A stretch of DNA of 43,723 bases from an uncultured Clostridia bacterium (GTDB lineage Bacteria; Bacillota; Clostridia; Christensenellales; UBA1242). Each line of letters starts with the position of its first letter. Positions within the stretch are counted from its first letter, which is position 1. Where the stretch lies: assembly GCA_947625165.1 (NCBI GenBank), contig CANQNH010000003.1, positions 1 through 43,723 of the forward strand, given 5' to 3'. The notes under the pieces are model-generated. The model was given only the letters and a program-made list of their open reading frames with translations, made no database searches and had not been told where the DNA came from. This document shows, in pieces, positions 1-42,579 of the stretch. The position numbers and the translations under genes are program-made.

Positions 1-2169
1 AACTTTTGTGTTGTCGCTTATGTATTTATAAGGCATCGCCGTTGAAAGCAAAGCTTCACCATTGATGACAAAATCGGATTGCTCTGTTCCCAAAAGTTGA
101 ACTCCCTTTGGCAACAAACTTTCTTTATAGGTGCTGTCAATGATGTTTCCAGCGGCATTTCTTGCCTGCACCAACTCGCCAGAGTTGTTGACAAGCAAAC
201 GATAGTCACCTTCCATAAAGTCGGCAAGCGAATATTCCTGCCTTGATGCAGGAATGTGATAGAAGAACCCTGCACCCGATGAGGCCGTGCCGCCGCGAAC
301 AAAGGTCTCATACCCCGTCGATTGAACTGCACCATCAAGAGTGATGTCACCATTGGAGGTGGTGTTAAGGCCTGTGAAAGCAAACAGAGTTCCACTTTCT
401 TTAACCCCGACCGAACTTATGTCCAGTCCAGAAGCATCCGCACAGTTGATGATGTATGTGTTCCCATTTGTTGCGCCAACAAGAGCACCCGGCTTGACAC
501 CGGATGAATAGTTAAGTTTGCGATATTCGCCAACGGTCAAATTTTTGATGACGGCATTGGTCACCTTGCCAAAAAGTCCAACATAGATGAAACTTTCTTG
601 CAACGAGCAGGAAATGTTCTTCACAGTGTGTCCATTTCCATCAAAAACGCCATTGAAACCTTGATACGATTTTGAAATTCCAATTGGTTGCCAAGTTTTT
701 CCGGTCAGGTCAATATCGCTTGTCAGCATGTAATATTGCCCCGGTGTTTGATTGGAAGAGTTATATTTTTTTGCCACAAAAGCAAGTTCTTCCGCCGTGT
801 TGACCAAATATGGAGAGGTGGCAGTTCCAGAGCCTTGAAGGGAGGAAACATATCCACTCCAAGTGTTGTCAAAACTCAAAGTTTCAAGTTCCACAAGAAA
901 AGCAAACCCTTTGTTGAAACCGGTTTTAACATTCCAAGTGCTTGTTTGACCGATTTCCCAATACAAACTCTCCTCTTCGAGAGGATTTGCTTGGTCAAAC
1001 CAGAAATCGTGGTTGATGTAAAATTCCGGCGTTTTTGCCAACATTGGCAGATTTCGTTCATAAGAGTTCTCACTTTCAGTGTCATAGCCAATCACTGCTT
1101 GGGAAAGGTCAATCGAAGCACCCTGCGTGCCAACAACCTTGCCAGGTTTGGTTGTTCCGCTGATTTGTCCCGCAGAAAAGCAGAAAGAAAGCATTTGGTT
1201 GCTTTTTGTTTGTTTTCCGATGATGCCACCGCAATCTCCGCCGTCAAGACCAGCGTTGATGTTTCCACCATTAAAGCATTCAGTCAATGTCAGTTGCCCA
1301 GCCAAAGTTCCGATAAGTCCACCAATGTCTGCAACACTTGATGCGGACAGGTTGCCGGTGTTGTACGCCTGACTTGTTGTGGATTTTACGCCAGTTTGAA
1401 TTTGTCCAATCAGTCCTCCAACCGAGCCGCTTGCACTTGAAACAAGCCCCGTGTTGCCAACAGTGGTCAAATTAATTTCTCCAGTTGTGGCAATTCCAAC
1501 AATGCCGCCGCAAGAGCCCGTGCCATTTGAAATGTTGACGGTGGATTTGCTGGTTGAAATGTTCACAATGCCGCTTGTGCTTCCAACAAGTCCGCCAATA
1601 TTTGCTCCTGACGAGATGTTTCCAGAAACTGAACATCTTTCAATTTCGCCGCCCGAGAAACTTCCAGCAATTCCGCCGACATTGTTGCCAGACGAAATGT
1701 CAATATTCTTAAGATGAAGATTTTCAATTTTTCCACCTGAAATTTTTCCAAAGAAACCAACATCACCAGAGGAAGAAGAGATTTTGATGTTGTAAATTGA
1801 GTGTCCATTTCCGTCAAATGTCCCTTGGAAAGAGCCTGTGGAGGAAGACGGCGTGATTGGAGCCCATTCAATCCCAGCAAGGTCAACATCTGTTTCCAGA
1901 ATGATTGTTGAGCCAGAATAGGACACATAACTGCCAGATGACCCACGCACCTGCTGAGCAAAGTATGCAAGCCCTCCTGCAGATTGTATGTAATATGTGT
2001 TTGCAACGCCCGCCGAAACAAAGCCACTCTCGTCTGCCTTGCCATCCCAAACGTCTGCTGTTCCACCATCAGCGGAAACAACACCACCCAAGTTCAAGTC
2101 AAGATTGAGAAAAACCCCGCAAAAAGCGAGTGCAAAAACCAAAAACAAAAAGAATGATTTTTTCTTCAT
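1..2169 (-). CDS. Secreted/surface GLUG-motif (Gly-rich beta-repeat) protein, partial (3' end runs off the window; absent from the ORF track because no stop is included)
   Basis: Manual translation of the minus frame from ATG 2169 (RBS GGAGAGGAAGG) gives MKKKSFFLFLVFALAFCGVFL... (signal peptide) and stays open to base 1. It has repeated NVGGIAG/NIGGLVG/SVGGLIG/DCGGIIG motifs and two FDGNGH(S/T) domains, one preceded by GSGTATSPYLVNTAEELA. Confidence 0.85.
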   Translation of the reverse strand, partial: MKKKSFFLFLVFALAFCGVFLNLDLNLGGVVSADGGTADVWDGKADESGFVSAGVANTYYIQSAGGLAYFAQQVRGSSGSYVSYSGSTIILETDVDLAGIEWAPITPSSSTGSFQGTFDGNGHSIYNIKISSSSGDVGFFGKISGGKIENLHLKNIDISSGNNVGGIAGSFSGGEIERCSVSGNISSGANIGGLVGSTSGIVNISTSKSTVNISNGTGSCGGIVGIATTGEINLTTVGNTGLVSSASGSVGGLIGQIQTGVKSTTSQAYNTGNLSASSVADIGGLIGTLAGQLTLTECFNGGNINAGLDGGDCGGIIGKQTKSNQMLSFCFSAGQISGTTKPGKVVGTQGASIDLSQAVIGYDTESENSYERNLPMLAKTPEFYINHDFWFDQANPLEEESLYWEIGQTSTWNVKTGFNKGFAFLVELETLSFDNTWSGYVSSLQGSGTATSPYLVNTAEELAFVAKKYNSSNQTPGQYYMLTSDIDLTGKTWQPIGISKSYQGFNGVFDGNGHTVKNISCSLQESFIYVGLFGKVTNAVIKNLTVGEYRKLNYSSGVKPGALVGATNGNTYIINCADASGLDISSVGVKESGTLFAFTGLNTTSNGDITLDGAVQSTGYETFVRGGTASSGAGFFYHIPASRQEYSLADFMEGDYRLLVNNSGELVQARNAAGNIIDSTYKESLLPKGVQLLGTEQSDFVINGEALLSTAMPYKYISDNTKV

Positions 2170-2218
2170 ACCTTCCTCTCCAAACTTTCAGGACACCCCC
2201 GAAAAAATGTTCAAACAA

Positions 2219-2247
2219 AGTATAGCATTTTTTGGAGCCAGACGCAA
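2219..2247 (-). promoter_or_regulatory. Putative sigma-A promoter of the GLUG protein gene
   Basis: Minus strand TTGCGT-17 bp-TATACT with an extended -10 (TGc). Confidence 0.5.
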
Positions 2248-2339
2248 ACAAAAGTGGGCAAATTATAAAAATATTATATATATAGCAACAAAAAATAACC
2301 GCAAATTTCAAATATTTTTTCGCCCGTAAATATATGTGA

Positions 2340-2810
2340 TTAAGGCGCTTGAAAATTTTTGAAAATTCAAAAAAATAAAGACAAGAGCAAAAAATTTGTT
2401 TTTTTTCAGTTTTTTTCAGTTTTTCCAGTGTTTTTTTTATAATTTTTTGTATTTTTTCCATTTTTTCACAATTCTTTATGCCCCTCACTCAACCCCATTT
2501 TTCCACTTTTCCCTATTCCAAAAATTTGTCAAATCCCAGCCCACCAAGTCGCAGCCAAAAGCAAAACAAAAAAACAAGCCCAAATTCTTGAAGATTTGAA
2601 AAAATTTTCAGACACTCCTCCCAGAAACAAGTTTCACAGCAAATCGATTGCAGAATTTTTTGATGTTTTAGGTGGAAAAAATTTTTATTTTTTTATTTTG
2701 CAAAAAAAAGGAAAAACAACAAAAAAACACAAAAAATTCAATTTTTTGCGTTTTTTTAACCATTTTTTGCTGTTTTTTTGAGATTTTTGCTATTTTTTCA
2801 AAAATTTATA
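2340..2810. repeat. Phased A/T-tract low-complexity intergenic DNA (~10 bp period)
   Basis: Tract starts at 2702, 2712, 2721, 2731 (A) and 2742, 2751, 2763, 2773, 2784, 2793 (T). A second T-tract run lies at about 2399-2466. Confidence 0.8.
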
Positions 2811-3848
2811 ATAATCCAATCCCATCGCATCTTTCATATTTTTCAGTGTTTTTGCAGCAACTTCGCTTGCTTTTTTTGAGTTCTCAAAAAGCATTTCATA
2901 GATTGCATCAATGTTTTTTTCAAGTTCTTTTCGTTTTTGTCTGATTGGCTCAAGCAGTTCTTGCAAGATGTTGTTCAAAAACAATTTGATTTTCACATCG
3001 CCAAGCCCACCTTTGCGATAATGTGCTTTCAGTTCTTCCAAATTGGCATATTCAGGCAAATATCTCCCAAAATGCTCATCTTTGCAAAAAGCGTCAAGAT
3101 ATTCAAACACAACATTCCCCTCAACTTTTCCTGGGTCGGTCACTTTGATGTGATTTGGATCGGTGTATGCACTCATAACTTTTTGCTTGACAACTTCCGG
3201 TTCATCCTTCAAAAAGATGCAATTTCCAAGACTTTTGCTCATTTTTGCAGCCCCATCAAGCCCCACAAGCCTGCCACACACCTTTTTCTCTGGCAAAAGC
3301 GCATTTGGTGCTGCAAAAACCTCTTTGCCATATGTGCTGTGGAATGTGCGCAAGATTTCACGCGTTTGCTCAATCATTGGCAGTTGGTCCTCACCCACAG
3401 GAACTATTGTTGTTCCAAAAGCCAAAATGTCGGCAGCCTGACTGATTGGATAACACAAAAAACCGACAGGAATTGAGGCGTTGAAACCTCGCAATTTCAG
3501 TTCGTCCTTGACTGTTGGATTTCTGTTCAACCTGGCAACTGTGACAAGGTTCATAAAATACATCGTCATCTCGGCAAGTTCAGGCACTTGCGACTGAATG
3601 AAAATGTCAACTTTGTTTGGGTCGATGCCGGCAGAGAGATAGTCAATTGCAACTTGAACAATGTTGTTCTTCACTTTGTCAACATTGTCAGCATTGTCAG
3701 TCAGTGCTTGCGTGTCGGCAATCATAATATAAAATTTTTCATAGCCGCCTTCTTCTTGCAATTTCAGTCTGTTTGCAACAGAGCCGACATAATGACCAAG
3801 ATGCAAATTCCCTGTTGGGCGGTCACCCGTCAAAATTATTTTTTTCAT
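2790..3848 (-). CDS. trpS: Tryptophanyl-tRNA synthetase
   Basis: MKKIILTGDRPTGNLHLGH (HIGH-like), YPISQAADI, VPVGEDQ and KMSKS motifs. Start moved to ATG 3848 because the ORF-track N-terminal extension is translated A/T-tract DNA. Confidence 0.97.
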   Translation of the reverse strand: MKKIILTGDRPTGNLHLGHYVGSVANRLKLQEEGGYEKFYIMIADTQALTDNADNVDKVKNNIVQVAIDYLSAGIDPNKVDIFIQSQVPELAEMTMYFMNLVTVARLNRNPTVKDELKLRGFNASIPVGFLCYPISQAADILAFGTTIVPVGEDQLPMIEQTREILRTFHSTYGKEVFAAPNALLPEKKVCGRLVGLDGAAKMSKSLGNCIFLKDEPEVVKQKVMSAYTDPNHIKVTDPGKVEGNVVFEYLDAFCKDEHFGRYLPEYANLEELKAHYRKGGLGDVKIKLFLNNILQELLEPIRQKRKELEKNIDAIYEMLFENSKKASEVAAKTLKNMKDAMGLDYYKFLKK

Positions 3849-4007
3849 AGAATTCTCCGAATGGAAAAATATCTCAAAATTTTCAAAAAAATGCAAAAAA
3901 ATTGTTTTTTTTATTATTTTTTTTGATTTTTTTGTTAATTTTATCAAATTTTTTTCAGCAATTTTTGTTTTCTTGCTTTTTTTGAAATTGATTATATTTT
4001 TCAAAAA

Positions 4008-5639
4008 TCAAACTATTGCACAAATTCTGCGCAGAACTTCCTTTTCTCCAAGGATTGTCATAATTTCATAAAGGTCTGGAGAGTTTTTGCGCCCCGTTAT
4101 CGCAACGCGGATATATTCGCACACTTTCGCAACATTGCCCAGATATTTTTCTGGGTTCTTCTTGAAATCCGCATTGTCTGTGGCATAGCCAAGTTCGCCC
4201 GCCATCTTCTTAACGTTGTCAAACCACGCGTCTTTTGTGTCCAAAACCAAATATTCTTTATATGCCCTCAAAACCTTTTCAAAATTTTTGCGTTCACTTT
4301 CTTCAATCTCAAAGGTTTTTGGTGCGCCAAACATATAGTCAAAAAGTTCAAAAAACATACTCCACTTAAAGATATCCTTTCGCGGCTTTGGCTTTTCGCG
4401 GTCAATGTTGAGGACTTTCATCACATAATCTTTCTGCTTTTCAAGATACTCAACATTCTCAAGGGAATATCCTTTCGCCCAATGAAGAAGATAGTCATAA
4501 CACTGCTGCGCTGTGAGTTTTGAAATGGCATCTTTTGAGATGTCGTTCAGTTTGTTGAAATCAAAAATTGGTGTGACCGTGGTGATTTTGAAGCCATCAA
4601 ACGCAAATTCTCTGAAATCCGCGTTTGGATTTTTCTTCCTCCAAATTTCAAAATTGGAATTGATAAGGTTGAGAAGATATTCCACAACGGCGGTTTTGTC
4701 ATAGCCCTCTTTTTCAAAGAAACGCATATCCATTTCTGGATCTTTGCGCTTTGAAAGTTTTCTGCGATTGCCTTTTTCGTTGAATTTGTATATGAGCGGA
4801 GTGTGAATATACTTTGGCTGTTTGAAGCCAAGCGCCTCAAAAATTTCGGCGTGAAGAGGATATGACGGCAACCACTCTTCCCCCCTCACAACAACCGTTG
4901 TGCCCATCAGAGTGTCGTCAATTGGGTGCGCAAAATGATAGGTTGGCAAGCCGTCAGTTTTAAGAAGAATTGCGTCCTTGCTGTTTTGCAAAATCTCAAT
5001 TTCTCCTCTGCTTCCATCTTGAAATTTGATTTTCTTCTTGCCGTCACCACTCGACTTTATTCTTATCGCAAATTTTTTGCCATCTTTCAAATTTTGTTCA
5101 ACTTGCTCATAGGTCAAATTTCGGCAAGGATCTTTCTCTTCCAAAACGCCCTGCGCAAAATTCTTTTCTCGTTTCTGTTTGACATCGTCAAGTCCATCCG
5201 TTTTCTTGCAAAAACAAGGAAAAGCCTTGCCCTCTGCCACAAGTTTTTTTGCATAAGCGCGATAGATTTCCTTTCTTTCGGTCTGATAGTATGGGCCATA
5301 ATCGCCAACAGTCACTCCGCCTTTGAGTTCATATTCGTCAGGTGTGAAGCCATAGCCGGTCAAAACATCCATAATGACAGCACTTGCGCCCAAAACTTCT
5401 CGTTTTTGGTCGGTGTCCTCAATTCTTAGATAGAACACCCCGCCGCTTTGCTTGGCAATGCTATAGTCAATCAACACCTGAAAAAAACCTCCAAGATGCA
5501 TAAAGCCGGTTGGGCTTGGCGCAAACCTTGTCACCTGCGCACCGGCAGCAAGTTTTCTTTTGGGATATTTTTTCTCAATTTCTTCAACCGTCAACTTCAC
5601 ATCCGGAAAAAGTAAATCCGCCAATTTTTTGTTATCCAT
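4008..5639 (-). CDS. gltX: Glutamyl-tRNA synthetase (long clostridial form)
   Basis: TRFAPSPTGFMHLGG, LRIEDTD, YHFAHPIDD, VVRGEEW and KLSKRK motifs. AAGGAG RBS before ATG 5639. Confidence 0.96.
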   Translation of the reverse strand: MDNKKLADLLFPDVKLTVEEIEKKYPKRKLAAGAQVTRFAPSPTGFMHLGGFFQVLIDYSIAKQSGGVFYLRIEDTDQKREVLGASAVIMDVLTGYGFTPDEYELKGGVTVGDYGPYYQTERKEIYRAYAKKLVAEGKAFPCFCKKTDGLDDVKQKREKNFAQGVLEEKDPCRNLTYEQVEQNLKDGKKFAIRIKSSGDGKKKIKFQDGSRGEIEILQNSKDAILLKTDGLPTYHFAHPIDDTLMGTTVVVRGEEWLPSYPLHAEIFEALGFKQPKYIHTPLIYKFNEKGNRRKLSKRKDPEMDMRFFEKEGYDKTAVVEYLLNLINSNFEIWRKKNPNADFREFAFDGFKITTVTPIFDFNKLNDISKDAISKLTAQQCYDYLLHWAKGYSLENVEYLEKQKDYVMKVLNIDREKPKPRKDIFKWSMFFELFDYMFGAPKTFEIEESERKNFEKVLRAYKEYLVLDTKDAWFDNVKKMAGELGYATDNADFKKNPEKYLGNVAKVCEYIRVAITGRKNSPDLYEIMTILGEKEVLRRICAIV

Positions 5640-5752
5640 TTTTTCTCCTTGTTTCACAAATTTTTGAGTTTTTTGCGAAAAAATTGGTTTTTTTTGCCAA
5701 TTTTTCATCATTTTTTACTTCTTTTTTGAGTTTTTTTGATTTTCTTCGCTTT

Positions 5753-6856
5753 TTACACACAAATTATGCCTTGAACATAATTAAGAAATCCAATCGCCGT
5801 GCAAGACAAAAATTGTGTGCATTTTTCGATGTAAATCTCCACAAATTTGTTGGCTTTCTTATATTCCTCAAGCACACCTTTATATTTGACATCCCAATTT
5901 TTGAAGTTGATGCCTCTCACCGATTTGATATAATCTTGTTGTTCGACTGCGAAATCTTTTGCTTGAGCAATCAGATCTTCAAGTTTATTACTTGCCTTGC
6001 ACTCTTTTGCAAGTAAGGTGTTTTTAATGTTGTTGTTGAAAAGATTTTTTGCCAAATCCAACAACTTGTTTCCCTCTGTTTTGGCATCTGCAAGAACGGG
6101 ATCCCAATTCATTTCATCGTGCACTTGAACGTAAGTCAATTCGGTGTATATCGGCAGCACTCTGACACGCAAATAGTCCCTGATGATTTCACTGTCTGTC
6201 TTTGTTCCACTTTTTGCCAAAGTGTCCAATATGCTGGATTTTTCAAGCACATTTGCCATTGAATTTGCCAAATTCACACATTTCTCGATGAGCGTCCCAT
6301 AAGATTTTTTGAAAAGTCTGACAATCTCTTTTGCATCAATGCTGTCGGTGTTGCCCGGATGATACACAAAATGGTCAACCAACTCTCGCCTTTCAGAAAC
6401 AAATTGTGGAATATATGAAATGACCGCTTTTATTTTTGCGTCAACATCGTTGATTGCTGATTTTGTTGCTGCATTAAGATTTGTTGGCAATGCCAAGATT
6501 GATGTTCGAGCCTGTCCGTCAATAAAGTCGTTTGCAATCGCCAGAATATAGTTGTATTTCGTTTCAAGTTCTCCATAAAATGCATCGGAAGCATCGTTTT
6601 TCACCGCAGTATCAACCGAAGTGCCATATGCGAGCTTATATTTTGTCGAAAAATTTGGGCTGACCTTTTCAAGCGGAGCGTTGCTGAAAACATCATTGCC
6701 CGAAGTGGAATATTTTTCATATGTCTGATCAAGGTCTTCAAAAGTTTCGGCAAGCGCCTTGATTGAAACATCTCCGCATCCCGAAAGCCCCACAAGAGAA
6801 AAAGCACAAATCACCAAAACGAAAACCAAAAGCAGCGATTTTATTTTTGTCTTCAT
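5753..6856 (-). CDS. Uncharacterised lipoprotein, predicted mostly helical
   Basis: 367 aa ORF with RBS AGGAGGG, a basic N-terminus, a hydrophobic stretch and lipobox LSG-C. Confidence 0.8.
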   Translation of the reverse strand: MKTKIKSLLLVFVLVICAFSLVGLSGCGDVSIKALAETFEDLDQTYEKYSTSGNDVFSNAPLEKVSPNFSTKYKLAYGTSVDTAVKNDASDAFYGELETKYNYILAIANDFIDGQARTSILALPTNLNAATKSAINDVDAKIKAVISYIPQFVSERRELVDHFVYHPGNTDSIDAKEIVRLFKKSYGTLIEKCVNLANSMANVLEKSSILDTLAKSGTKTDSEIIRDYLRVRVLPIYTELTYVQVHDEMNWDPVLADAKTEGNKLLDLAKNLFNNNIKNTLLAKECKASNKLEDLIAQAKDFAVEQQDYIKSVRGINFKNWDVKYKGVLEEYKKANKFVEIYIEKCTQFLSCTAIGFLNYVQGIICV

Positions 6857-12441: not shown

Positions 12442-15400
12442 TCAGCCAACAGATTTGGTTGTGGCATAGCCAGAGCCATCGTCCACAGTCATTGTGGATA
12501 TGCCACTGACTGTTGGCACTTTTGTGCTTTGGGTTTGCAAATCAAAGACACCTTTTTGAAGCACAACCACACCGCCAGCAAAACAGGTCATTGAGTTGGA
12601 TTTTGTTGCATTGACTGAGATTGTTGCATTATTCTCTGCCTTAATATTGCCACCTATATTTGAAATGGCAATTCCTGCAATTTGAATGCCGCTTGCACCC
12701 GTTGCAGAAAGCACCATTTTGAGCGAAGCCGTTTCGGCGGTCGAACAATCTTCAAGGGTTGCATAGTTTGTGTAAACAAGCCCAGCAAAGAAAATGTTTT
12801 GCGCTCTGCCACTGTCTTGAATTTCTGTTTGTGCGTTGAATTTGCAGTTTTTCAAAGTGCCACGATTGACTGACACAACACCGCTGTATGACATTGTCAG
12901 CACGGTGGAAGATGCAACATAGCCAACAAAGTTTGTGGAAAATTCATCAATTTCAACACCTTCAATCACACCGCTGTTGGAAATGGCAATGGCTGAAATC
13001 AGCGTTCTGTCCTGAATTGTGGCGCTGCTTTGGAAATTGGCTTTTATGTGCAAGTTTTGAATTTGCGCGCCCTGTCTGATTTCTCTGAAAAGTGCTGTTG
13101 CGTTTTTAAAGCTGAATTTTGTTTCGTTTCCATCAGAAATCGCCGTGTCTGTGTTTCTGACATCAAGAGTGCTGTCAAGTCTTTCCACCCCACTTGAAGT
13201 GAACGAAACTGTGTTTCCATTTCCAAGCAAAATTCCGTCAAAAGCGCCGTCAACATAGATGCCGCTGAAATCAAGTTGCAAGCCATCATCACCTTCCGGC
13301 TCAAGAGAGAAGTAATATCTCGTTTCCTCATCTTTATGCTGCAAGCCAGCGGTTGTGTATTCGTTCAAATCCTTGCTCATACGGTGCTTGATGTTTGCAA
13401 ACTGCTGTGCGGTTTTGATGACATATGGGTTTGCGCTCGTGCCTTGCCCTTCTGCAAAAAGGTTGAACTCAACGCTGTCAGTTGAGCCATTCCCGTCCGC
13501 ATCCGTTTCGTCAACATACGAAAGTTCGTCACTTTGGATGCTGGTTTGATTGAGTTTGATGCGAAGTTTCAATTTGACGGTTGCAACGATTGTCGGTTTG
13601 AAGGTGCTTTCTTTGATTGTGTAAGTTCGCACTTCCTGAGCATCACCGATGATGTAAGTTGCCTCAACAACAAATGTTGGTTTCTCAATCTTGCTTGCCG
13701 AAACTCTGAACAACTCACCTTCAATTTCAACAATGGCATTTTCGCCCTGATTTTCAACAACTTTGACAAGTGCGCTGCCATCAAAAGTCTTGGTTTTTTG
13801 CGCTCCGTCCTCGCCCATATCTTCTTGAATTTCTTTCTTGAAATCTGTGCGTTTCACAAAGTAGAACGCCCCGTCTTTGATGATTTTGATATGGTCTTTT
13901 TCAGCAACATCCTCAGCAACATTCAAAACTTCGCCGCTTTCCACAGTTTTCTCAGACGGAGTTTCAAGGTCGTCCTCATTTTCATAGAGCGGGCAAGTTG
14001 CATTTGCGGTGTAAACATATTTCATCTGCTGTGCTGTGACAACCGAGTTGAACGAATTGAAAGGATAGTCCCACGAGAACTCTTGCTCCTCGTCGTCCCA
14101 AGCAATTTTGACATTTTCAACACTCGTGCGATGCAACATAAACGCCTCACTTCTGTTGCTGTTCAATTTCCCTTCACAGCGAACTTCAAACCAAACTTTT
14201 GATGTGTCCTCGCTGGTGATGATGACATAGTCCTCAACATAGCCGTCCGGCCAGGAAACGCTTTCCGTGTTGACGCTGTCTTTCATAATGTAGAGTTTGT
14301 TTTTCGAACTTGTGAAAACAATTTCGCGCTCGGCTGAGCCGTTGAGTGCGTTCAAATCTTCAAAATGAGCCACAATTTCATTTTGCTGACTGTCTGGGCG
14401 TGTGAAATAATTCTCAAATGAGATGTATTCGTTGCCCGACATGGTCAAAACTTCAAAATCTGTGCCCAAAATGCCAGTCAGTTTTGTGAACTGCCCAGAC
14501 CTTGCAACAGAATTGATGAGTTGCCTGTCTGGATTTCCAGAACCAATCACAACATAAACTTGCAAAGTGCTTATTCCTTCAGGGATTGTTCTTTCGCCCG
14601 GAGTTTCCGCGAATGTGATTGTGAAAGTTCCATCAGCATAGGTGATTGTCTTTGTTCCAACATATTCTCTTCCATTCTCGTCAGCCACAACAAAGCGGAA
14701 ATAGTTTTCCAGATTGTTCTCTGTCAGCGTGTCGCCGGCAACAGAGGTGACGGCTGGGGTGTAAGTCCACGACAACAGTCCGTTTTCATTGACACTCAAA
14801 CTGCCCTCATCAATAGGCTTGATGCGTTTAAGTCCAGAAAGAACAGCCCCCTCGCTCATTAAACTTTCAAAATTGGAGTTGGCATATTTTGTGTGTCCGC
14901 CTGCAAATCCGCCCTCAACAAGCGGAACCTCATTTGAGCCAGAAAGCAGTGCCACTGCCTGAACGGTGACCTTATAAAGCACATCTTCGCGGTCAAGTTC
15001 AGGTTTTTCTTTGACGTTCAGAAAGTCAAACACAATCTTTCCGTCTTTTTCAAGCGCGGTGTAGAAAGTTTCAATGTCGTCTTCCGTTCCAACTCTTGTT
15101 TCAACATTTTCAACTTCGTTTGTGGTGTATCTCTCCACGCGGATTTTGTAAACATCTTGTGCACTTTCAGGGATTTTCAACGATGAGCCATCAATCTCAC
15201 GCCCCACAACAGTGTCAAAATTCAGAAGCCCGCCCACAATCTGCATTGTTTCTTGGACAACTTTGTCAAGCATCACGGCTGGAAGCGCACCAACATTGCT
15301 CTTCACAACAACGCCTTCCGTGCGTGCCTCACCTGTGGCAACGTCCACACATTCAAGGTCTTTGATGTAGTATGCACTTGAAGAGCCGTTTGTTTTCTTT

Positions 15401-18400
15401 TTGAATGTTGCCGTTGAGCCAAGACTTTCGGCATAGAAATTTTTGGCATTAAACTCTGTGGCTTTAAACGCAGCCTCAGGGGTTTCTGGGTCAAGCCCCG
15501 GAACGATGCCTGTTTCATATTCAAATCCGAAATATTTTTCCTCGTCACACACTTGAAGATAGGTCAAACCGATGGTGGAAACATCGTTATAGAGGTTGTA
15601 AACATATTTGTCGGTGTCGGAATAGCTGTTTGCAAGATATGTCCTGTTCTGCTCGTCGCCCTTGATGAACAGATGCCCAAGCTTGTTTTGAAGTTGTGGA
15701 GCATACAGCTTGAACACATTTTGAATTTGCAGCATATCGCTGTCAACATAGATGGTGTTCCCTGTGACACCGCCAATCAAAAGGAAGCGTATGTATTCAT
15801 AAAGTCCAGCACCAGAAGCCTCTGTGCCATCCATTCCGCTCAAAGAGAAAGTTGGATTTGTCAAGTCGCCAGAAACACGCGTTGACTCCTCAGTTGCACG
15901 ATTTTGTTTGTAAATCACATAGGTGTCACGATTTTGTTGTGTCTGCCAATAGAATTGCCCATCTCTGATGCCAAATTGTGTCAGTTCCAAGAACGTCATT
16001 GCAAACATTTCTGATTTGCTGGACAGGGAATAGTCCGTGCCAATCGCACAAATCTGGAATTGTTTTGGCTCAACTTTGTCAATTTCACTTTCAAATCTGC
16101 CAAGCAGCGAGTCTCCACTGTTATAGTTGATGTAAAATTCAAGTGTGTCGCCATTGTCTGTGACTGTCGCGGTTGTTGAAAGTGCTGTGTTTGACAAACA
16201 TTGAAGCCTCCACCCGCCTGACTGAACAAGTGTGTAATACGATTCGCCAACTTTGAGATAATAGCCGGTTGCATCAATTTGTGTGTAAGCAGAAGAGGAT
16301 GAAGAGTATGTCCAAACCTTACTCTTTTTGACAGTCACTTTGAGGGCTTTGGTATAGTCCTGAGATTTCTCTTGGTCAACCGTGATTGTCACATCAGGCT
16401 CGCCATTGATGTATATTTCATTCTTACCCAAACTGTTCTCATATTCATACATATAAGAATTAAGTGAGAATGCATTGCCAAGCAAGCAATATTCCATCTT
16501 ATATTTTCCTGCCTGCAAAGTGTTGAGATAGTCATCCACAAACAGAGCCGGCCCGCCAAGTCCTGCAGATGCGCGTTCAATTCTTTCATAGAAGTTTGCA
16601 AGGGTTGCCTTGCTTGATCCAAGCGTTGTTGCTTCAACAAGGGCATCAATTCGATCTTTGAGATTGCCAGATGCGTTGCGGGAATAGAAATCAATAAGAT
16701 TTGACACAAGTTCGACAATCGGCACATCATATGAGCGCGCATAACCCTGCACTCCGCCGCCTTCCGCAAGAGGAGTGAACCTCAGTCGCAGGAAGAGCAT
16801 ATTTTCTTCAAGCAAATCTTTGAGTGTGAAGGTGAAAGGCTCTTCAAAAATTGTATCCTCGCTGGCAAGCTCTTCCGCAATCATGGACAAACTTCTTGCC
16901 TCGCTTGGCTCTTCCGTCAAAAGTTTGAAGAATTTGCCATCTTTGTTCCAATCGATAAACAGTCTGCCATCATCGATCTGAATGACCGAGGTTTGAACTT
17001 TGTTTTTTCTGACTTTGATTGGCAAGCCACTGACATCACTATAGAATGTCAGTGCAGACGAAACGACCGACAGATTTGAAGTGTCCTCGCAAATTGCTTG
17101 CACTGCAACATAGATTGAAGTGTCATCGCAGAACATTTTTGAGGTGTCCACAGTTGTCGTTTTGGTCTTGATGTGTGCCCAAGCAACAGGCGACGAGCCG
17201 CCGATGGATGCAACGAAATAGACATAATATTGTTCAGCGTCAACGCCCTCCCAAGTCAAATTTCCACCTCTTATCATCAACGATGTGACATTCGCATAGC
17301 GGAAGAATTTGAAAGGTTTGCCCGATTTGTCAGTTTTGAGCCAATCCGAAACACAGAATTTTGTTTTCGTTCCAACTTTTGCAAATTCAAGTTCGAAATA
17401 GCCCGAACGACCTTCCAGCTTTTCATTGTTAAACACATCCACAAGGTTCACAGCAAAGGTTGTTTCAAAGTATGGGTTTGAAAGAGCCTGCTCTTTTGAA
17501 ACAAAAACGGTTTGCACAAAATCATCTTGTTTCACTTTCACATAGAAGCCCGATGTCAAGAAACCACCAACCATGTCTTCCTCATCGTCATCATTTCCAA
17601 ACAAAACATAGGTGTTCACAAAGTCTTCTTGAATGTCGCCATCACCCTTGTTTTTCGCATCTGTCCCAAGTTTGACAACTTCTTGGAATTGAATGTCTGA
17701 GATGTATGAAAATTCATATTTCGCCGCCTTGGATGCAAGATAGAGCGCTTCCGGCGTGCTTTGCTTGTATGCCCAGAAAGTCAGGCTCATATTTTCGGTC
17801 ATCTCAACACTCCAACCGCTGTCACTGAGCGCGGTGAGGATGTCAAGAAGCGAATATCGAAAATCCACGCCAACACCAGAGGTTGATGTGATGCCGCCGG
17901 TCAGTTCGATTGAAACAACTTCCTCTTTGTCCAAACTTTGTTTGTTTCTTCCAACATACAAGAAATTGTTTTCGTCAAGAGTGTCCAAAGTGAATGTTAT
18001 GCCATCTGGATGGTCTGGGTCGTGCTGAATTTGCAAGATGTCGTTGACTTTATAGAAGCCAAAATCGCCAAATGAGGAATATGGCATCGAATCAAGCAAG
18101 AAGTTTGCACCAGAGGCAGCTCCCTCGCCAATGATGACCACTTCAACATAAAATGCCTGCGCGGACTCTTCTTTAAGATCAATTTCCAAAAGCACCGTTG
18201 TGGAGTTGACAACTGTTGTGGTTTTCCAACTCTGAATTGGTCTTGTTTCCAAGCCGTCAACAATCACATAGCGATACATCAACTTTTGCCCTTCTTCAAG
18301 CCCTGCCAGATAAACCCTTCCCATCGAAACGGAAACATCTTCTTTGCGGATTGGATTTCCCACAATTGTTGCATTGAATGTGCAGGCATGAGAGTTGTTG

Positions 18401-21400
18401 AAATTTTCCCCGTCACCAACCGCAACAAGTTCGAAAAACACTTGGCAATCCTCTTCCAAATCCTCTCTTGAGAATTTGTTTTCGCCAATCAGGTTTTCAT
18501 AGGTCTCGCCAAAAATTTCATAGAGAGTTCTCTTCACCAAACCGCCAGAGTTGGTGTTGTCGGTTTGATATTCATAAACAAGGTCGCCCTTTTCTCCGTC
18601 AACAACTTTGTAGGTGCGCAAAATGTAGCCCTGCGCATTGTCAACGACTTTCCACACAAGGCGCATCTCGTCATCGCTGCGCTCAATTTTGATTGTGTCC
18701 GCATCCACGCTTTCAAGCCTCTTCATTGTGAAAAGAACTTCTTTTTCAACAGATGAAACATAATATTTTGTCTGAGTTGAAATCACTTCCGTTTCGTGCG
18801 TTGCCATAACTTTCAAGTTGAATTGTCCATTTTCCCAATTGTCTGGCGCATCAAACACAAAACGTCCTTCACCATTTGCTTTGACAACATAGATTTCCGC
18901 ACCATTCTTGACAAAATATGCCACTTTGCCATCGCGACCTCCGGTGATTTCAAAGCCGTTGACCGTGCGCGAAATGTTGGCATCACTGACACTTGCCAGC
19001 ACCTCAAACGGCTCACTTTCAACCATTCCCGATGCGTTCACTTGCGTTCCGCCAACTGATGCAAGAAAATATTTTGAATTTTGCGCGCTGTTGTTGACAA
19101 ACGCACTCAATTTGATTTGCCCGCCAGATGCAAGGTTTTCGTTGAACCACTCGCTTTGTGTCGTTCCAAGGTCATATTCAAACAGTCCCTCACTGCCGTC
19201 AACTTCCCCAGAGAATGTCACAAAGAATGCCTTTGAAGTTGTGATTGTTGGGGATGAGCTTTCGCCGCTGAAAATGTCCACTTTCAAAACAACGCCTTCG
19301 GCAAGTTCTTCCAAAAACTCCTCGGAATATGTGAACTGCACCACTTTGCCAAAGCCAATTTGGTCTGGCTTGAAGGTGACGCCGCTCAAATCGTGCGCGC
19401 GTTTAAGTGTGAGAACATATGCTGACGAAGGCAGCAGCGCGTGAGCATTGTCGCCCTCGCTGACAGCATAGATTTCAAATTTGAGGTCGTTTTCTGTGGT
19501 GAGATAGTTTGCGATTTCTGCGCTTGAAAGTGTGACATCATATGCCTCACCGGCATTGCTTGCTGTGACTTTGCGCAAATATTCTCTTCCTGTGGATGCA
19601 ACGCGATATATTTCAAAAGTTCCGTTTCCGCCATAGTTTCCTTTCAAAGACAATTTCACATCTGGATGTTGTGCATTGAGAGGGTCAGATTTTTCATAAA
19701 CATATTCCAACGCGGAAAGTTCTGGCATCGCAAGTTTTTGCGTGACTGCCGAAGCATTGTAAATATAATGGTTGCACTCGCCAGCGCCCTCATCCACAGT
19801 GTTGAGCAATTTTTGTGCATCGGCATAGAAAACATCGCCTGCCACAACAGAGTATGCCCCCAAATGCGCTGAAAGGCTGACAGTGATTTCGCCTGCCTGA
19901 AATTCTTGCAAATCTTGCAACAACTGCTGAGCATTTTCATCTTCGGCATCCGTCAAATTGACACTTGTTTTGGTGGTTTTGAAGGTTGCAATTCTTCCTG
20001 CCGTATCCTTGAAAATCAAAACATATTCAAGTGATGGCAGGTTTTTGCCAACGCCGTATTCTTTCCAAGACACAACATTTCCTTCAAATGTGATGGTGTC
20101 ATTTTCAGGTTTCACACCCTCATCATTCATCGCTTTTGCTGTCCAAGACGCCTTTTCGCTGTTGATATAATAGGTTGTGCAAAGCAGTTTGCCCGCCTCT
20201 TCTTGCTCTGGATGTTCCTTTTCCTCCACCTTTTGTCCAATGATGGTGAAGTCATATGGATTTTCCGTTCCTTCAATTTTCACTTTGCCCGAAGTTGAAT
20301 TTTCGCTCAAAACTCTGCTGCCATATTCCACCTTGACCGCTGTTGAAAAGTCAATTTCTGGTGCAACATAGGCAAGTTCCGCAAGGTCAGTCAATGTCAC
20401 TTTGTCAAGAGGTCTCAATTTGTAAATCTTCACAAGTGACGATGCGTTTGATGTCAAATATTGCGGATGCGAAACTTTGACATAGAAGGTGAAGAATTGC
20501 CCAACAGTTTTGTGCTCGCTTGTGAAGTTTGTGAAAGAGTTTGTGGAAACACTTTCAAGCAAAGTGTCCTCGCCACTTTCAGAACGAACATAGATTTCAT
20601 ATTGCACGTTTGCAAGTTGAGGCGCGCCCAAAGGTTCGCCACCAACTGCGGCGCTGTTCCAAGAAAGAGTGTAGTTCTGCCCCTCATAATCAAAAGTCGG
20701 AACAACCTCATCAAACTTTTTCACTTCCACAAAATCCTCTTCGTTTGCCGTCTTTGCAAACAAGGAAGAAATTTGCACAAAGGTTGAGCCTTCGCTGTCG
20801 CGTTCAGTGTTTTGATAAGCAAACACTCTGAATTTGATGGAGTTTGCTTGCGCAAAGACAGAACTCAAATCCTCCACTTCGTTCAGTTTGTCAATGAAAC
20901 TTTGAATGTTGATTGAAATTTTGTTTCCTTCCAAAAGTTCCTCAACATAATCCACCTTCACACCAAACTCACCCGAATGCCGATCAACCGTCACTTTCTC
21001 CGTTTCAAAACGAACGGTGAATTTGTTTGTGTCACCATTAACGCCCGTGCAGTCAATGTCAACAACATAATATGCCGTTGCAGTTGCTTGGTCGTGCTCA
21101 AAAACAAGTTTCCCACTTTCAAATTGCAAATTGGTCGGGTTGGAAAGTCGCTGGAATGCGATGTTTGACTTTCCACTTTCCAAAAAGACATTCAGTTCGG
21201 TTTCGTCTTCACTTTCCGTCTTTTCAATTTCAAAATAGTTCCCCTCTTTCTTTGAGCCATTCAGCGTGATGTCCAACGAGAATTTGACAAAATTTCCCTC
21301 GTCATCAACAATCTTGATTGTGGCATCCTCAGTGCTGTTTGCAAGCAATTTGTCACCTTTGGAAACAACAATCTCGCTGACACCCTTTGTTTTTCTGATT

Positions 21401-23973: not shown

Positions 23974-24169
23974 AAAAAACCTCTTCAACATTTTGAGAAT
24001 TTTCTTTCGGATGGTCGCGTCAAAACTACTTGTTTTTATTTTAACACTTTTGGTTTGAATTTATCAAATAAAAACACGAAATAAATTATATAAAAATAAA
24101 GACATTTTTTCTCGCCGTTTTGTGAACAAACCACCACATCTCAAAAAAGTTTTTCTGTTCGATTTTTAA

Positions 24170-24335
24170 AGGCAGAAAAATCAATCAAAAACACAACAAA
24201 TTTTTAAGAAAACAAACAAAAGCAAAAAAACAAAAAAATAAAAAAATTCAAAAAAAATGCGTTTTTTTACAATTTTTTACGCATTTTTTAATAATTTTTT
24301 CAACTTTTTCATTTTTCACATATTTTTTCACCATA
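24170..24335. repeat. Phased A-arm/T-arm pseudo-palindrome
   Basis: A-tracts run up to AAAAAAATGCGTTTTTTT (about 24251-24268), then T-tracts start at 24262, 24273, 24284, 24295 and 24305. Confidence 0.75.
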
Positions 24336-25502: not shown

Positions 25503-25883
25503 ATGTTGTATGAAACACTTGCCCAGCCAACGATATTTTTTTGCATATGTTTGGGCGGATTTTTTTCTGGAATAATTTTTGACCTAAAAACGATTTTGAC
25601 AACTTTTTTCAAAAAAAATCGTTTTTTTTGCCATTTTTTTATGTTTTTGGCATCATTTTTTGTGATTTTTCTGTTTTTTGTTTTAAATTTGAAACTTAAT
25701 TTTGGTGAATTTCGGCTTTACACCGTCTTCACATTTTTGCTTGCTTTTTGCATTGAGCGCTTCTTTGTTTCCAATTTTGTTGCAAAACCCGTCGCCAAGT
25801 GTTACAATATCATCAAAGGAAAAATCAATGAGCGAAGAACAGCAAGAGCAAAAAAAAATCAAACTGAAAATTGTCAAAACTGA
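25503..25883 (+). CDS. yabQ: Spore cortex biosynthesis protein YabQ-like
   Basis: Q...FF...LGGFFSGIIFD start, NFGEFRLY motif, multi-TM profile and position after yabP. Confidence 0.75.
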   Translation: MLYETLAQPTIFFCICLGGFFSGIIFDLKTILTTFFKKNRFFCHFFMFLASFFVIFLFFVLNLKLNFGEFRLYTVFTFLLAFCIERFFVSNFVAKPVAKCYNIIKGKINERRTARAKKNQTENCQN

Positions 25884-26189: not shown

Positions 26190-26855
26190 TCAATAGAACA
26201 GACCAACGATTTTTGAAAGCAAATTTTCATATAAAAAATTGGAAATTTGTCCGCTTCTCACAAATTGCAAAAGCCCCTCGCTTAAGATGATGTTTGAAAG
26301 CATAGTAAGCGAGAAAAAGACAATTCCAAACACAATCATCCCTTTCAAAAGCCCTAAAACACCGCCCAAAATGCGATTTCCAACCGAAAACCCGCATTTT
26401 TTTATTAATTTGTTCAGAAAAAGACGCAAAATTTTCAACAAAATTTCAAAAACAATAAAAACAATCAGAAAAAGCACCACTTTGATGAGAATTGTTGAGA
26501 TTGTTGGTGCAAGAATTTGCCCAGCGGTCAAAGTTCCGTCAAAAAAGATGTTTCCAATCAATTTTGAGATGAAAAAGGAAAAAAGTGTGCCAAATTTAGT
26601 CGCTGAAAGCGCAAATTCCAAATCTTCAACGCTGGCAAAATTCCCCTTGACAAGACCATCAAACAGTCCGCCAAGCGTTTCTTTGACAAAATCACCGCAA
26701 TAGTTTTCTGCAATTGGCAAAAATTGATGCATAAGTTGCAAAGAAATCAATGCCACCACAAATGTGCCAACAAGAGAAAACAGCGTTGAAACAAACCCTT
26801 TCAAACACCCACGAACAAAATAGAATGCCAAAATCAAAAGAAGGACAAAATCCAC
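26190..26855 (-). CDS. cvpA: CvpA (colicin V production) family membrane protein
   Basis: DFVLLLILAFYFVRGCLKGFV N-terminus and NRILGGVLGLLKG motif. Confidence 0.85.
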   Translation of the reverse strand: MDFVLLLILAFYFVRGCLKGFVSTLFSLVGTFVVALISLQLMHQFLPIAENYCGDFVKETLGGLFDGLVKGNFASVEDLEFALSATKFGTLFSFFISKLIGNIFFDGTLTAGQILAPTISTILIKVVLFLIVFIVFEILLKILRLFLNKLIKKCGFSVGNRILGGVLGLLKGMIVFGIVFFSLTMLSNIILSEGLLQFVRSGQISNFLYENLLSKIVGLFY

Positions 26856-27043
26856 ATCTCAATTTTTGACTTTTTGTGCTCTTTGCAAACACTTTGAGTA
26901 AAATTTTTGCGATTTTCAAAAAAATGTTTTTGAATGTTTTAAAATATATTTTCTGTTTTTTATTTTTTTCATTTTTCAAAAAAATTGTTTTTTGCACCCA
27001 ATTAACACTATTTTCAATAAAAAAACGAGGTTTTGCTTAAAAC

Positions 27044-27619: not shown

Positions 27620-27790
27620 GTTTAGTTTGTGAAAAACACAATTTTTAATTCGGTTTTTTCTGTTTTTTGCGATTATTTTTTGATTTTTTTCACATTTTTT
27701 TGCTTTTTTATGATTTTATTACTTTATTTTTCCAATTCTCAAATTTATTTTTTGTTGTGTTTTTTTGTCTGCGAAAATTTTTCTTCATCT
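27620..27790. repeat. Phased T-tract intergenic DNA
   Basis: T-tract starts at 27642, 27654, 27663, 27676, 27684, 27695, 27704 and 27714. Confidence 0.75.
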
Positions 27791-40809: not shown

Positions 40810-40985
40810 CACCCCTCAAAAAAAACAAATTTGAAAAACAAATAAACAAAAATTTTGAAAGACGCAAAACAAGAAAAAAGAATTAAAAAACAAATAAAAA
40901 TAACAAAAAAAGCGAAAAATCCAACAAAAAATCAAAAAAAATGCAACAAATTTTGCATTTTTTCTTATTTTTTTTGTTTTTGCTG
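40810..40985. repeat. Phased A-tract array ending in an AAAAATGCAA/TTGCATTTTT palindrome
   Basis: One A-tract in nearly every 10-nt block from 40881 to 40941, then an inverted repeat centred near 40949. Confidence 0.7.
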
Positions 40986-41774: not shown

Positions 41775-41780
41775 AAAGAA

Positions 41781-41809
41781 AGCATATCACAAACTCACAA
41801 AAAATGCAA
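41781..41809 (-). promoter_or_regulatory. Promoter probably giving a leaderless transcript
   Basis: TTGCAT-17 bp-TATGCT (extended TG), then 6 nt, then ATG 41774. No SD sequence. Confidence 0.6.
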
Positions 41810-42010
41810 GGCAAAAATTCCTTTTTGCCAAAAATTGCACTTTTTTGTTGCATTTTTTATGTTTTTTGCCATTTTTTTGCGTTTTTTTGAATTTTTGTTT
41901 GTTTTTTATGTTATTTTTGCTTTTATTTTTTTGTTAAACTTTCTACTGTTTCTATTTTTCTACATTTGTTTTTTTCTCAAACCTTCTTGTTTTAATTTTT
42001 TTATGCTCTT
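41810..42010. repeat. Phased T-tract array
   Basis: T-tract starts at 41853, 41862, 41872, 41882, 41892, 41902 and 41914. Confidence 0.8.
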
Positions 42011-42033
42011 TTGAGGTCATTTGTCGAAACTTT

Positions 42034-42501
42034 TCAAGACCTTTCAATAACACCGCAGGCAATTTTTTGACCGGAATTTCCCGCAGGTTGAGAAGTGAAG
42101 TCGTCTGGTTGCAGATGAATGACAACCGTCTTGCCAACAATCTCGCTGACGGAAAATCTGTCAGTGTAGAAAACCAAAAACGCCTCGCCTTCCGATGAAA
42201 AGAGCGGCGGCATATCTCCGGCGTGGCTTGGGTGCGGCTGATTGTTTGGATTGAAATGCCCACCCGTCAGCGCAAAATCATCCTTGCAAGACCCACCCTC
42301 GTGAATGTGAAATCCAAAAATTTGCGGCTCTTTGCTTGGCAGGCCCTCAACTTCTGCAACCACCAAAACGCCCTTTTTTAAGGAATAAAATTCCACAACT
42401 CCCAAAATTTTTGGAAACGCGGTCCCGCCTCGGACAACCGAATATGCACTTGGCATCGCTTTGCCAATATACTCAAAAATGCTCTTGTCAACCCTTTTCA
42501 T
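42034..42501 (-). CDS. sodC: Cu/Zn superoxide dismutase family protein without a signal peptide
   Basis: GFHIHEGGSC, GGHFNP, HPSHAGDMPPL, VVIH..PDDF and GNSGQKIACGVI motifs. GGAGG RBS before ATG 42501. Confidence 0.9.
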   Translation of the reverse strand: MKRVDKSIFEYIGKAMPSAYSVVRGGTAFPKILGVVEFYSLKKGVLVVAEVEGLPSKEPQIFGFHIHEGGSCKDDFALTGGHFNPNNQPHPSHAGDMPPLFSSEGEAFLVFYTDRFSVSEIVGKTVVIHLQPDDFTSQPAGNSGQKIACGVIERS

Positions 42502-42579
42502 TTGAAAAAACCTCCAAAATTTCAAATTTTCTGCAATTTTTTATATGTATTTTTTGAAATTTTTGATTTTTTGCAAAAT

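Follow-up and report, generated by a model that had tools for sequence, protein, structure and literature searches.

The window analysed here is an entire 43.7-kb contig (CANQNH010000003.1) of an uncultured gut Clostridia bacterium with a small genome, recovered as a metagenome bin of 1.04 Mb in 56 contigs (39.8% G+C, 82% completeness); the genomes of its genus measure ~1 Mb. Its genes are ordinary bacterial ones, including a Trp/Tyr-family tRNA synthetase, a GluRS-like gene, DnaB, BipA, ABC transporters, MscL and Cu/Zn SOD. The subject of this study is the series of short A- and T-tracts that stand about one helical turn apart at the edges of such genes. Under the rule that the starts of tracts of at least four A or four T (A4+/T4+) lie 9-12 bp apart, the window holds eleven such arrays with 4-10 tracts each (Table 1).

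For the longest of these arrays (2702-2798), an initial annotation of this DNA had placed ten consecutive tract starts at 2702, 2712, 2721, 2731, 2742, 2751, 2763, 2773, 2784 and 2793, and these positions are exact, with a mean step of 10.1 bp. The array begins within the last codons of the upstream gene, the Trp/Tyr-family synthetase, whose stop codon is 2790-2792 on the minus strand; in translation, its final codons (KFLKK, then the stop) already lie within the array. In the neighbouring array at 2389-2466, the T-tracts become A-tracts when read along the coding strand of the gene at 1-2169. Eight of the nine arrays listed in that annotation held up, while at 26900-26995 there is no array of at least four tracts under the 9-12 bp rule, and the wedge model of DNA curvature (see below) predicts a straight course there (18 degrees).

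Table 1. Phased arrays and related features; bends are wedge-model predictions, in degrees, and are compared with shuffled sequence
Position	Strand	Feature	Basis or predicted bend
2389..2466	.	8 phased tracts, plus strand 1 A then 7 T	bend 151 vs 49±23
2702..2798	.	10 phased tracts, plus strand 4 A then 6 T	bend 156 vs 54±26; 0/200 shuffles as curved
2721..2750	-	terminator-like core at the A-to-T switch: A.U-rich hairpin 2728-2750, then U7 2721-2727	RNA folding
2790..3848	-	class-I tRNA synthetase, Trp/Tyr family, 352 aa	Pfam tRNA-synt_1b, E 3.8e-55
3885..3955	.	7 phased tracts, between the GluRS-like and Trp/Tyr-family synthetase genes	bend 128 vs 40±20
4008-5639	-	GluRS-like gene	
5701..5754	.	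6 phased T-tracts upstream of the GluRS-like gene	span 5645-5754, bend 153 vs 54±27
24240..24309	.	7 phased tracts, 2 A then 5 T	span 24220-24330, bend 135 vs 55±26
25611..25670	.	6 phased tracts, absent from the initial annotation	9-12 bp rule
27632-27668 and 27684-27717	.	two short arrays, 4 tracts each	span 27642-27720, bend 120; 1% of shuffles as curved
40874..40931	.	6 phased A-tracts between convergent genes	span 40850-40945, bend 111; 1% of shuffles as curved
41830..41918	.	9 phased tracts, 1 A then 8 T	bend 169 vs 56±29
42495..42542	.	5 phased tracts, absent from the initial annotation	9-12 bp rule
G000:C22:11830-14361	-	LigD, arrays at residues 190-209 and 536-559, between phosphoesterase, ligase and primase-polymerase domains	
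		P-type ATPase, array between HMA domain and pump	
		MiaB-like enzyme, array between UPF0004 and radical-SAM domains	
		ZIP transporter, array at residues 136-154, within the Zip family match region	
		Fmt, array within the C-terminal domain	

Phasing of the tracts and its distribution among genomes

As the main null model, tracts were re-placed randomly within each 200-bp block with their number and lengths kept (200 runs; 100 for spectral power). Genome-wide, the arrays of at least five tracts numbered 153 against 40.1±5.7 under the null, those of at least six tracts 99 against 10.7±3.1 (maximum 21), and those of at least eight tracts 41 against 1.1±1.0 (maximum 4), the largest holding 14 tracts. 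Moreover, in crude intergenic DNA the spectral power of tract centres, computed locally, peaked at 10.3 bp with a value of 1.59, versus 1.05±0.034 in the 100 nulls, none of which exceeded 1.41 over the range of 8-13 bp; thus a peak near 10-11 bp, on which the initial annotation had staked its proposal, stands clear of a null that preserves tract lengths. The array period was 10.2-10.4 bp genome-wide, and the lag histogram showed maxima near 10, 21, 31, 41, 51-52 and 62 bp. Intergenic enrichment, likewise proposed at the outset, was seen in the older series based on a token shuffle (power 1.60 in crude intergenic versus 1.06 in crude coding DNA). On the other hand, the arrays of at least six tracts measured 53-134 bp (median 69), shorter than the dedicated 100-400-bp spacers that had been envisaged.

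The token shuffle just mentioned, an earlier null in which A-runs, T-runs and C/G-runs were permuted, lets same-letter runs merge and so produces more and longer tracts; its inflated counts are conservative for the excess at 9-12 bp and overstate the shortfall at other spacings. Read in this way, runs of at least four tracts at other spacings lay below the inflated counts (148 vs 420 at 5-8 bp, 44 vs 128 at 13-16 bp, and likewise at 17-20 bp). For triples of T5 runs the same shuffle returned 1207±71 in-phase and 1154±83 out-of-phase cases, versus 1009 and 127 observed, a meaningless comparison that was dropped. A PerPlot-like AA/TT index (lags 30-100) peaked at 10.35 bp genome-wide (5.0), at 10.55 bp in intergenic DNA (6.8) and at 11.85 bp in coding DNA (3.4); it was discarded, as its top peak wandered to unrelated periods on 100-kb samples and the published thresholds are not comparable.

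That the arrays are an assembly or homopolymer artefact might be suspected in a metagenome bin of 56 contigs, all the more as low-complexity DNA draws stray contigs, with depth spikes at 2335-2501 and 3838-4004. Yet the arrays are present on independent contigs of two studies. Contigs from one study's run, which may be the source sample of the genome assembly itself, are identical over 2612-2820, 3777-3941 and 5522-5913, and a 4,938-nt contig from a second study, ~97% alike, covers 2432-5714 with no indel listed within 2702-2798. The pattern moreover recurs in all 81 genus genomes sampled, and the chance that the tracts are artefacts is practically negligible. The two depth spikes come from contigs of rabbit-gut metagenomes, where many short outside contigs fit the array only, which suggests that look-alike arrays are common in this habitat. 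In the ~97% identical strain of the second study, 68 bases at 2363-2432, belonging to the 2389-2466 array, are swapped for 69 others; the flanks stay collinear, and therefore the sequence has turned over while its length was kept.

The density of arrays was compared between genomes by counting, on both strands, triples of T5 runs spaced 9-11 bp, with a spacing of 14-16 bp as the out-of-phase control. The genome under study held 965 in-phase triples in 1.04 Mb, the highest count among the 81 genus genomes sampled; the other 80 held 37-811, with the next highest at 811, 778, 602 and 584. In 150 genomes representing 128 further genera of the phylum the counts were 0-177, and the density here was ~9 times that of the richest of them. 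The ratio of in-phase to out-of-phase triples was 965:129 here, as compared with 177:134, 126:83 and 102:70 in the three richest genomes outside the genus. In 100-kb samples, three close members of the genus showed a 10.3-10.4-bp peak (power 1.38-1.65), while among four genomes belonging to other families in the order the peak was absent from three and weak in one. Thus the phased arrays are a genus-wide trait, and the claim of a lineage trait was upheld.

The relatives identified through BipA (80-94% identity) are uncultured gut Clostridia bins, one of which carries the label Candidatus Caccovivens. At 80 BipA loci of relatives, 40 arrays of at least six tracts were counted in 1.49 Mb versus 20.4 under the token shuffle, a weak result that has been superseded by the pattern counts.

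Predicted bending, junction spacing and arrays inside protein genes

Curvature was predicted with a wedge model, under which an in-phase synthetic array is curved and an out-of-phase one straight. Eight of the nine stretches of the initial annotation are predicted to bend by 111-169 degrees, versus ~50±25 degrees in shuffles, the stretch at 26900-26995 being the one that fails. Thus, of the helical phasing and intrinsic curvature claimed at the outset, the former is borne out by the 10.3-bp peak and the latter agrees with the model's prediction.

The spacing at tract junctions bears on bending more directly. Within arrays, the centre-to-centre distance was 10.34 bp between A-tracts (n=207) and 10.32 bp between T-tracts (n=272), while it was 11.05 bp at A-to-T junctions (n=95) and 9.77 bp at T-to-A junctions (n=62). 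With nearest neighbours excluded (lags 14-66), the phase shift was +1.09±0.12 bp for A-to-T, -1.59±0.46 bp for T-to-A and -0.04±0.16 bp for A-A pairs. In the wedge model, curvature is greatest at junction spacings of 10 bp (A-A), 11 bp (A-to-T) and 9 bp (T-to-A). The bend of an A-tract is centred slightly toward the 3' end of the A-run, and the junction offsets fit this geometry. Thus the wider A-to-T and narrower T-to-A junctions are what coherent bending requires, and they are the strongest evidence for curvature.

The helical repeat of the 99 arrays of at least six tracts is 10.31 bp in the model, the same as the observed period, and therefore no wrapped or histone-bound state is needed to account for it. 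This result bears on the initial annotation's own idea that curved spacers position a histone-like or other wrapping protein and so constitute a new bacterial chromatin system. The period near 10 bp, the location of arrays at gene boundaries and the presence of two HU-family genes in the genome are consistent with it. Against it stand, besides the identity of period and intrinsic helical repeat, the short extent of the arrays (mostly 53-134 bp) and the searches for candidate proteins: CBFD_NFYB_HMF, Histone, DUF1931, Alba and H-NS gave no match in the genome, which at 82% completeness does not prove absence, and among the most lysine-rich open reading frames (ORFs) there was no plain lysine-rich H1-like one, the top ones being spurious-looking or ordinary proteins with lysine-rich ends (the names are our own reading). 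Two HU genes were the only nucleoid candidates found; a wrapping system of this kind appears very improbable, and that part of the annotation was not supported.

Some arrays lie inside protein genes. Crude gene calls place 25 of the 99 arrays within ORFs of at least 150 aa and 74 outside, and a Pfam scan covered 10 of these 25 ORFs. Several of them encode real multi-domain proteins in which the array falls exactly between domains or in a loop (Table 1); such in-gene arrays consist of sense-strand A-tracts and are read as lysine-rich stretches. The remaining cases look like false 5' extensions or C-terminal tails, since A-tract arrays are free of stop codons. The first linker of LigD, built here from repeats of 21 nt (7 residues), is short in the orthologue of genome G003 (62% identity); arrays therefore expand and contract over the span in which species of the genus diverge. 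In this genus, the ligase and primase-polymerase of LigD are fused with a phosphoesterase domain in one frame of ~810-860 aa; in an out-group (G023:C7:15662-17390) the ligase and primase-polymerase parts are separate, adjacent ORFs.

Repeats of this kind raise the question of whether the arrays are a neutral product of mutation, arising by slippage or duplication of 10-11-bp or 21-bp units at A-runs with no selection on shape. Several lines of evidence point in this direction: i) next-but-one linkers within arrays were identical in 7 of 263 pairs, versus 1.7±1.3 by chance, and TRF reported periods of 20-21 (rows scoring 30-84 with 65-100% matches); ii) the LigD linkers are longer and array-like here and short in the G003 orthologue; iii) array density varies 25-fold within the genus; iv) 68 bases of one array have been exchanged for 69 in another strain. 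On the other hand, adjacent linkers were identical in only 3 of 340 pairs, where chance gives 2.2±1.5. Therefore the arrays are not tandem copies or a minisatellite, though with a trace of 21-bp duplication, and the initial statement that the linkers differ and are not copies of one repeat was correct. Furthermore, slippage should spread any spacing, whereas long runs are confined to 9-12 bp and those at 5-8 and 13-20 bp stay under the inflated counts of the token shuffle; nor would duplication account for phase shifts of +1.09 and -1.59 bp that match the optimum for bending. A purely neutral origin is thus improbable.

Gene context and transcription signals

Based on the same crude gene calls, the 74 arrays outside ORFs were distributed over tandem gaps (46 arrays, 427 gene pairs), convergent gaps (12 arrays, 101 pairs), divergent gaps (12 arrays, 107 pairs) and contig ends (4 arrays). 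Arrays of at least four tracts occurred in 22-36% of gaps of 80-600 bp in every orientation, reaching 50% in convergent gaps of 300-600 bp, and in none of 166 gaps under 40 bp.

The order of tracts within arrays is strongly polar. In a simple classification, arrays running from A to T outnumbered those running from T to A by 28 to 7; when arrays were classed by their halves, the A-then-T order prevailed in tandem gaps (14 to 1), in convergent gaps (3 to 0) and in divergent gaps (4 to 2). Read in the direction of the flanking genes, the arrays of tandem gaps comprised 219 A-tracts versus 123 T-tracts, with A first in 36 of 46. This order can be set beside the ends of genes. Of 656 genes, 197 carry a hairpin and then a run of five or more T in the 120 nt past the stop codon, and when sequences were aligned on these hairpins, A-tract occupancy had maxima near -21, -29, -39, -50, -60, -68 and -78 and T-tract occupancy near +13, +23, +33, +44 and +54, i.e. 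a ~10-bp period kept over five or more turns.

The 2702-2798 array illustrates this arrangement. On the minus strand, the stop codon at 2790-2792 is followed by six A-tracts, the hairpin of 2728-2750, its U7 and three more U-tracts; the hairpin and U7 sit 40 nt after the stop, in the layout of a two-way terminator (A-tract, hairpin, U-tract). The RNA of 2715-2762 (minus strand) is predicted to fold into an 18-pair hairpin of -14.4 kcal/mol (z -4.2), with none of 200 shuffles as stable, and the A-tracts of the full 111 nt can pair with its U-tracts (-26.1 kcal/mol, z -2.9). The stem of 2728-2750 is not G+C-rich, being A.U save for CGC/GUG (3 G-C or G.U of 18 pairs), and a simple scan needing three G-C pairs returned no terminator in 2170-2800 on the minus strand. 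At the same gene end in 11 relatives, at least six have terminators made of A-tract, hairpin and T-tract, with one to five phased flanking tracts (judged by eye). An A-then-T order would offer a hairpin and then U-tracts to polymerases arriving from both sides, and a T-then-A order to neither, so that the polarity may stem from this two-way layout.

Predicted promoters show a comparable pattern. At 41 consensus-predicted promoters, tract occupancy had maxima near -42, -52, -62 and -72. By our own reading of the promoter scan, the arrays at 2702-2798 and 2389-2466 are not adjacent to a -35 box, and the best promoter-like site lies ~150-250 bp downstream of the latter. A promoter and terminator scan of 2000-6000 yielded 15 promoter-like sites versus 7.0±2.5 in shuffled sequence and 4 terminator-like sites versus 3.6±2.1, nothing decisive.

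These alignments raise the possibility that the arrays are a mere by-product, in which the A- and U-tracts of two-way terminators and the phased A-tracts of promoters are packed into short spacers with no architectural role. The phasing around terminators and promoters, the 14 to 1 polarity in tandem gaps, the hairpin and U7 at 2721-2750 and the plain terminators at the same gene end in relatives all agree with this explanation. So does a survey of Rho, which was not found in the genus and whose absence would place more load on intrinsic terminators: the Rho RNA-binding domain exceeded the cut-off in 0 of 19 genus genomes versus 10 of 12 from other families of the order, these being samples that include several incomplete genomes. 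On the other hand, one U-tract suffices for a terminator and two or three tracts for a promoter, whereas 41 arrays hold 8-14; arrays are as frequent in divergent gaps, where no terminator is needed, as in convergent gaps, where no promoter is needed; the in-frame arrays of protein linkers lie far from either signal; and the junction offsets fit bending and are not predicted by termination. A pure by-product is therefore unlikely, if far from negligible.

Arrays also affect the annotation of genes. In the frames 2790-4004 and 4008-5711, the Pfam domains of both synthetases begin 55-60 residues into the longest ORFs, since ORF finders run genes through A- and T-tract arrays, which hold few stop codons; judged by these domain starts, the long ORF extensions over 3885-3955 are non-coding. 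Small spurious ORFs cover other arrays (e.g., 26692-26997 and 41604-42014). Elsewhere in the genome, G000:C6:19220-19594 and G000:C54:1549-1887 are small ORFs with long K- or E-rich N-terminal extensions that resemble, by eye, a membrane-translocase subunit and a ribosomal protein.

Other features of the window are as follows. One open frame of 3,849 aa (12442-23991, minus strand) occupies a quarter of the contig. Midway in the 620-bp spacer between the 2389-2466 and 2702-2798 arrays, the segment 2470-2650 is not tract-like and lacks an ORF, an Rfam match or a nameable feature; it could be what is left of a gene, or a small RNA missed by annotation. An Rfam search of the window at gathering scores gave a single match, a tRNA, and at a loose E-value 2100-2900 yielded only sub-threshold, chance-level matches, with no known RNA family among them. 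None of the sequencing runs listed as containing this DNA is recorded as RNA.

A proposed role and its relation to known systems

Taken together, the phasing is far beyond chance, tuned for additive bends, not made of tandem copies and arranged around ordinary transcription signals, and selection on DNA shape is well supported. We propose that arrays of tracts one helical turn apart (~10.3 bp) probably bend 50-130 bp of DNA by ~110-170 degrees without protein and serve as boundary pieces. Terminator and promoter tracts would have been lengthened under selection for DNA shape, and the fixed bends would act as DNA-encoded boundary pieces between transcription units. Such bends might fix where the tips of supercoils or DNA loops are located, offer HU a favoured site, assist RNA polymerase at promoters, and reinforce weak A.U-rich terminators in either direction; a wrapping protein would not be required.

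Several observations weigh against bends as boundary pieces: i) most gene boundaries have no array, since only 22-36% of gaps of 80-600 bp hold one of at least four tracts, and so the initial description of arrays as gene-boundary spacers stands as to their enrichment outside genes and falls short as to the remaining gaps and the 25 of 99 arrays inside ORFs; ii) rates are similar in divergent (12/107), convergent (12/101) and tandem (46/427) gaps, and therefore the arrays are tied neither to terminators alone nor to promoters alone; iii) density spans 25-fold within the genus and a 27% GC member (G005) lacks a periodic peak in a 100-kb sample, which together argue against an indispensable role; iv) within arrays, a hairpin (at least four pairs, at least two G-C) precedes the first T-tract after an A-tract (13 of 145 cases) no more often than it precedes inner T-tracts (52 of 410); v) a permutation test of flank complementarity at 2,195 A-to-T junctions genome-wide, coding DNA included, was negative (7.1% vs 7.6%); vi) the promoter profile consists of 41 consensus matches, some possibly made of array sequence; and vii) the bends are predictions that depend on the parameters chosen for the model.

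A bolder extension of the boundary proposal would hold that in this genus DNA shape has partly replaced lost protein factors, given that searches detected no Rho in the genus and no H-NS, histone-fold or Alba protein in the genome under study, the arrays being protein-independent boundaries that stop transcription from both sides, pin supercoil tips and thereby keep adjacent transcription units apart, under a pressure strong enough to keep arrays in frame within the linkers of LigD, the P-type ATPase, the MiaB-like enzyme and Fmt. We regard this as speculative and rather doubtful.

The genus nevertheless offers a natural test set, with its small genomes, few nucleoid proteins, no detected Rho and 25-fold range of density, in which array gain and loss can be related to gene content, terminator strength and gene order. 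The junction offsets provide a sequence-based sign that bending itself is kept, beyond A/T richness or repeat growth, and the in-frame arrays indicate that a constraint on DNA shape can mould protein linkers. For annotation, stop-free A-tract arrays inflate ORFs and need to be allowed for. The role of bacterial A-tract periodicity is described as still open in the abstracts of two papers (PMC3431218, PMC3940949).

Periodic A-tracts in bacterial intergenic DNA have already been published, and the initial claim of an undescribed system has to be withdrawn. Their concentration between genes is reported in the abstract of Hosid et al. 2004 (PMC516772), and ~100-bp A-tract clusters were proposed to lie at the apexes of DNA loops (Tolstorukov et al. 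2005, as described in a passage of PMC4761138). Passages from the Mrazek group describe an A-tract periodicity that is strong, differs greatly among more than 1,000 prokaryotic chromosomes and rarely extends past ~150 bp (PMC3431218, PMC3372288), and link it to nucleoid proteins (PMC3940949), while the abstract of Atzinger and Lawrence (PMC7537859) questions the supercoiling reading of the difference between 10 and 11 bp. A 2026 preprint on a genomic language model (10.64898/2026.10.21.760802) reports, in its relevant passages, 32 clusters between genes in which runs of 4-6 A or T recur every 10-11 nt, which its authors set aside as curvature-related A-tracts rather than RNA elements; the tract spacing is the same as here, and those passages give no taxa, polarity, junction phase or lineage distribution. 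Open-access keyword searches returned no description of the genus, of junction offsets, of terminator-centred polarity or of in-frame arrays, which is not proof of their absence in print.

As far as the relevant passages of these sources go, the arrays agree with the published clusters in consisting of A/T runs at the helical period, in being concentrated outside genes, in fading within ~100-150 bp and in varying in intensity between genomes; those clusters are likewise read as intrinsic curvature, with proposed roles at loop tips, in nucleoid packing and in transcription. Membership in the class of prokaryotic phased A-tract clusters is accordingly seen in the helical period, the ~100-bp size, the concentration in non-coding DNA and the curvature, the last as predicted by the model. 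Unlike what those passages describe, the arrays here reach 965 triples in 1.04 Mb and up to 14 tracts, have an A-then-T polarity around terminators and occur in frame within protein linkers; their period is 10.2-10.4 bp, versus the ~11 bp reported for E. coli and H. influenzae.

At the level of transcription signals, phased A-tracts reportedly lie upstream of Firmicute sigma-A promoters (Helmann 1995), spaced by roughly a helical turn just before the -35 box, which the occupancy maxima at the predicted promoters here (-42, -52, -62, -72) resemble. Most long arrays in this genome differ in not being promoter-proximal, and that of 2702-2798 abuts a stop codon. Curved DNA or phased tracts upstream of the -35 box are also known from Bacillus phage promoters and the plc promoter of Clostridium perfringens. 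With two-way intrinsic terminators the arrays share the succession of A-tracts, hairpin and T-tracts after stop codons, while here the stems can be almost purely A.U and phased series of tracts take the place of the lone A-tract and U-tract.

Among eukaryotes, long series of helically phased A/T tracts that bend strongly and differ in sequence between copies are likewise known from the periodic An/Tn clusters (PATCs) of Caenorhabditis elegans and from kinetoplast minicircles, in their bent region. They differ from the arrays in lying in introns or minicircles, in acting with nucleosomes or kinetoplast packing, and in having no link to bacterial terminators or promoters. The origin of PATCs is the subject of a 2026 preprint (10.64898/2026.08.08.743475). 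Thus the arrays of this genus are an unusually dense and extreme example of a known bacterial feature, rather than a new chromatin system.

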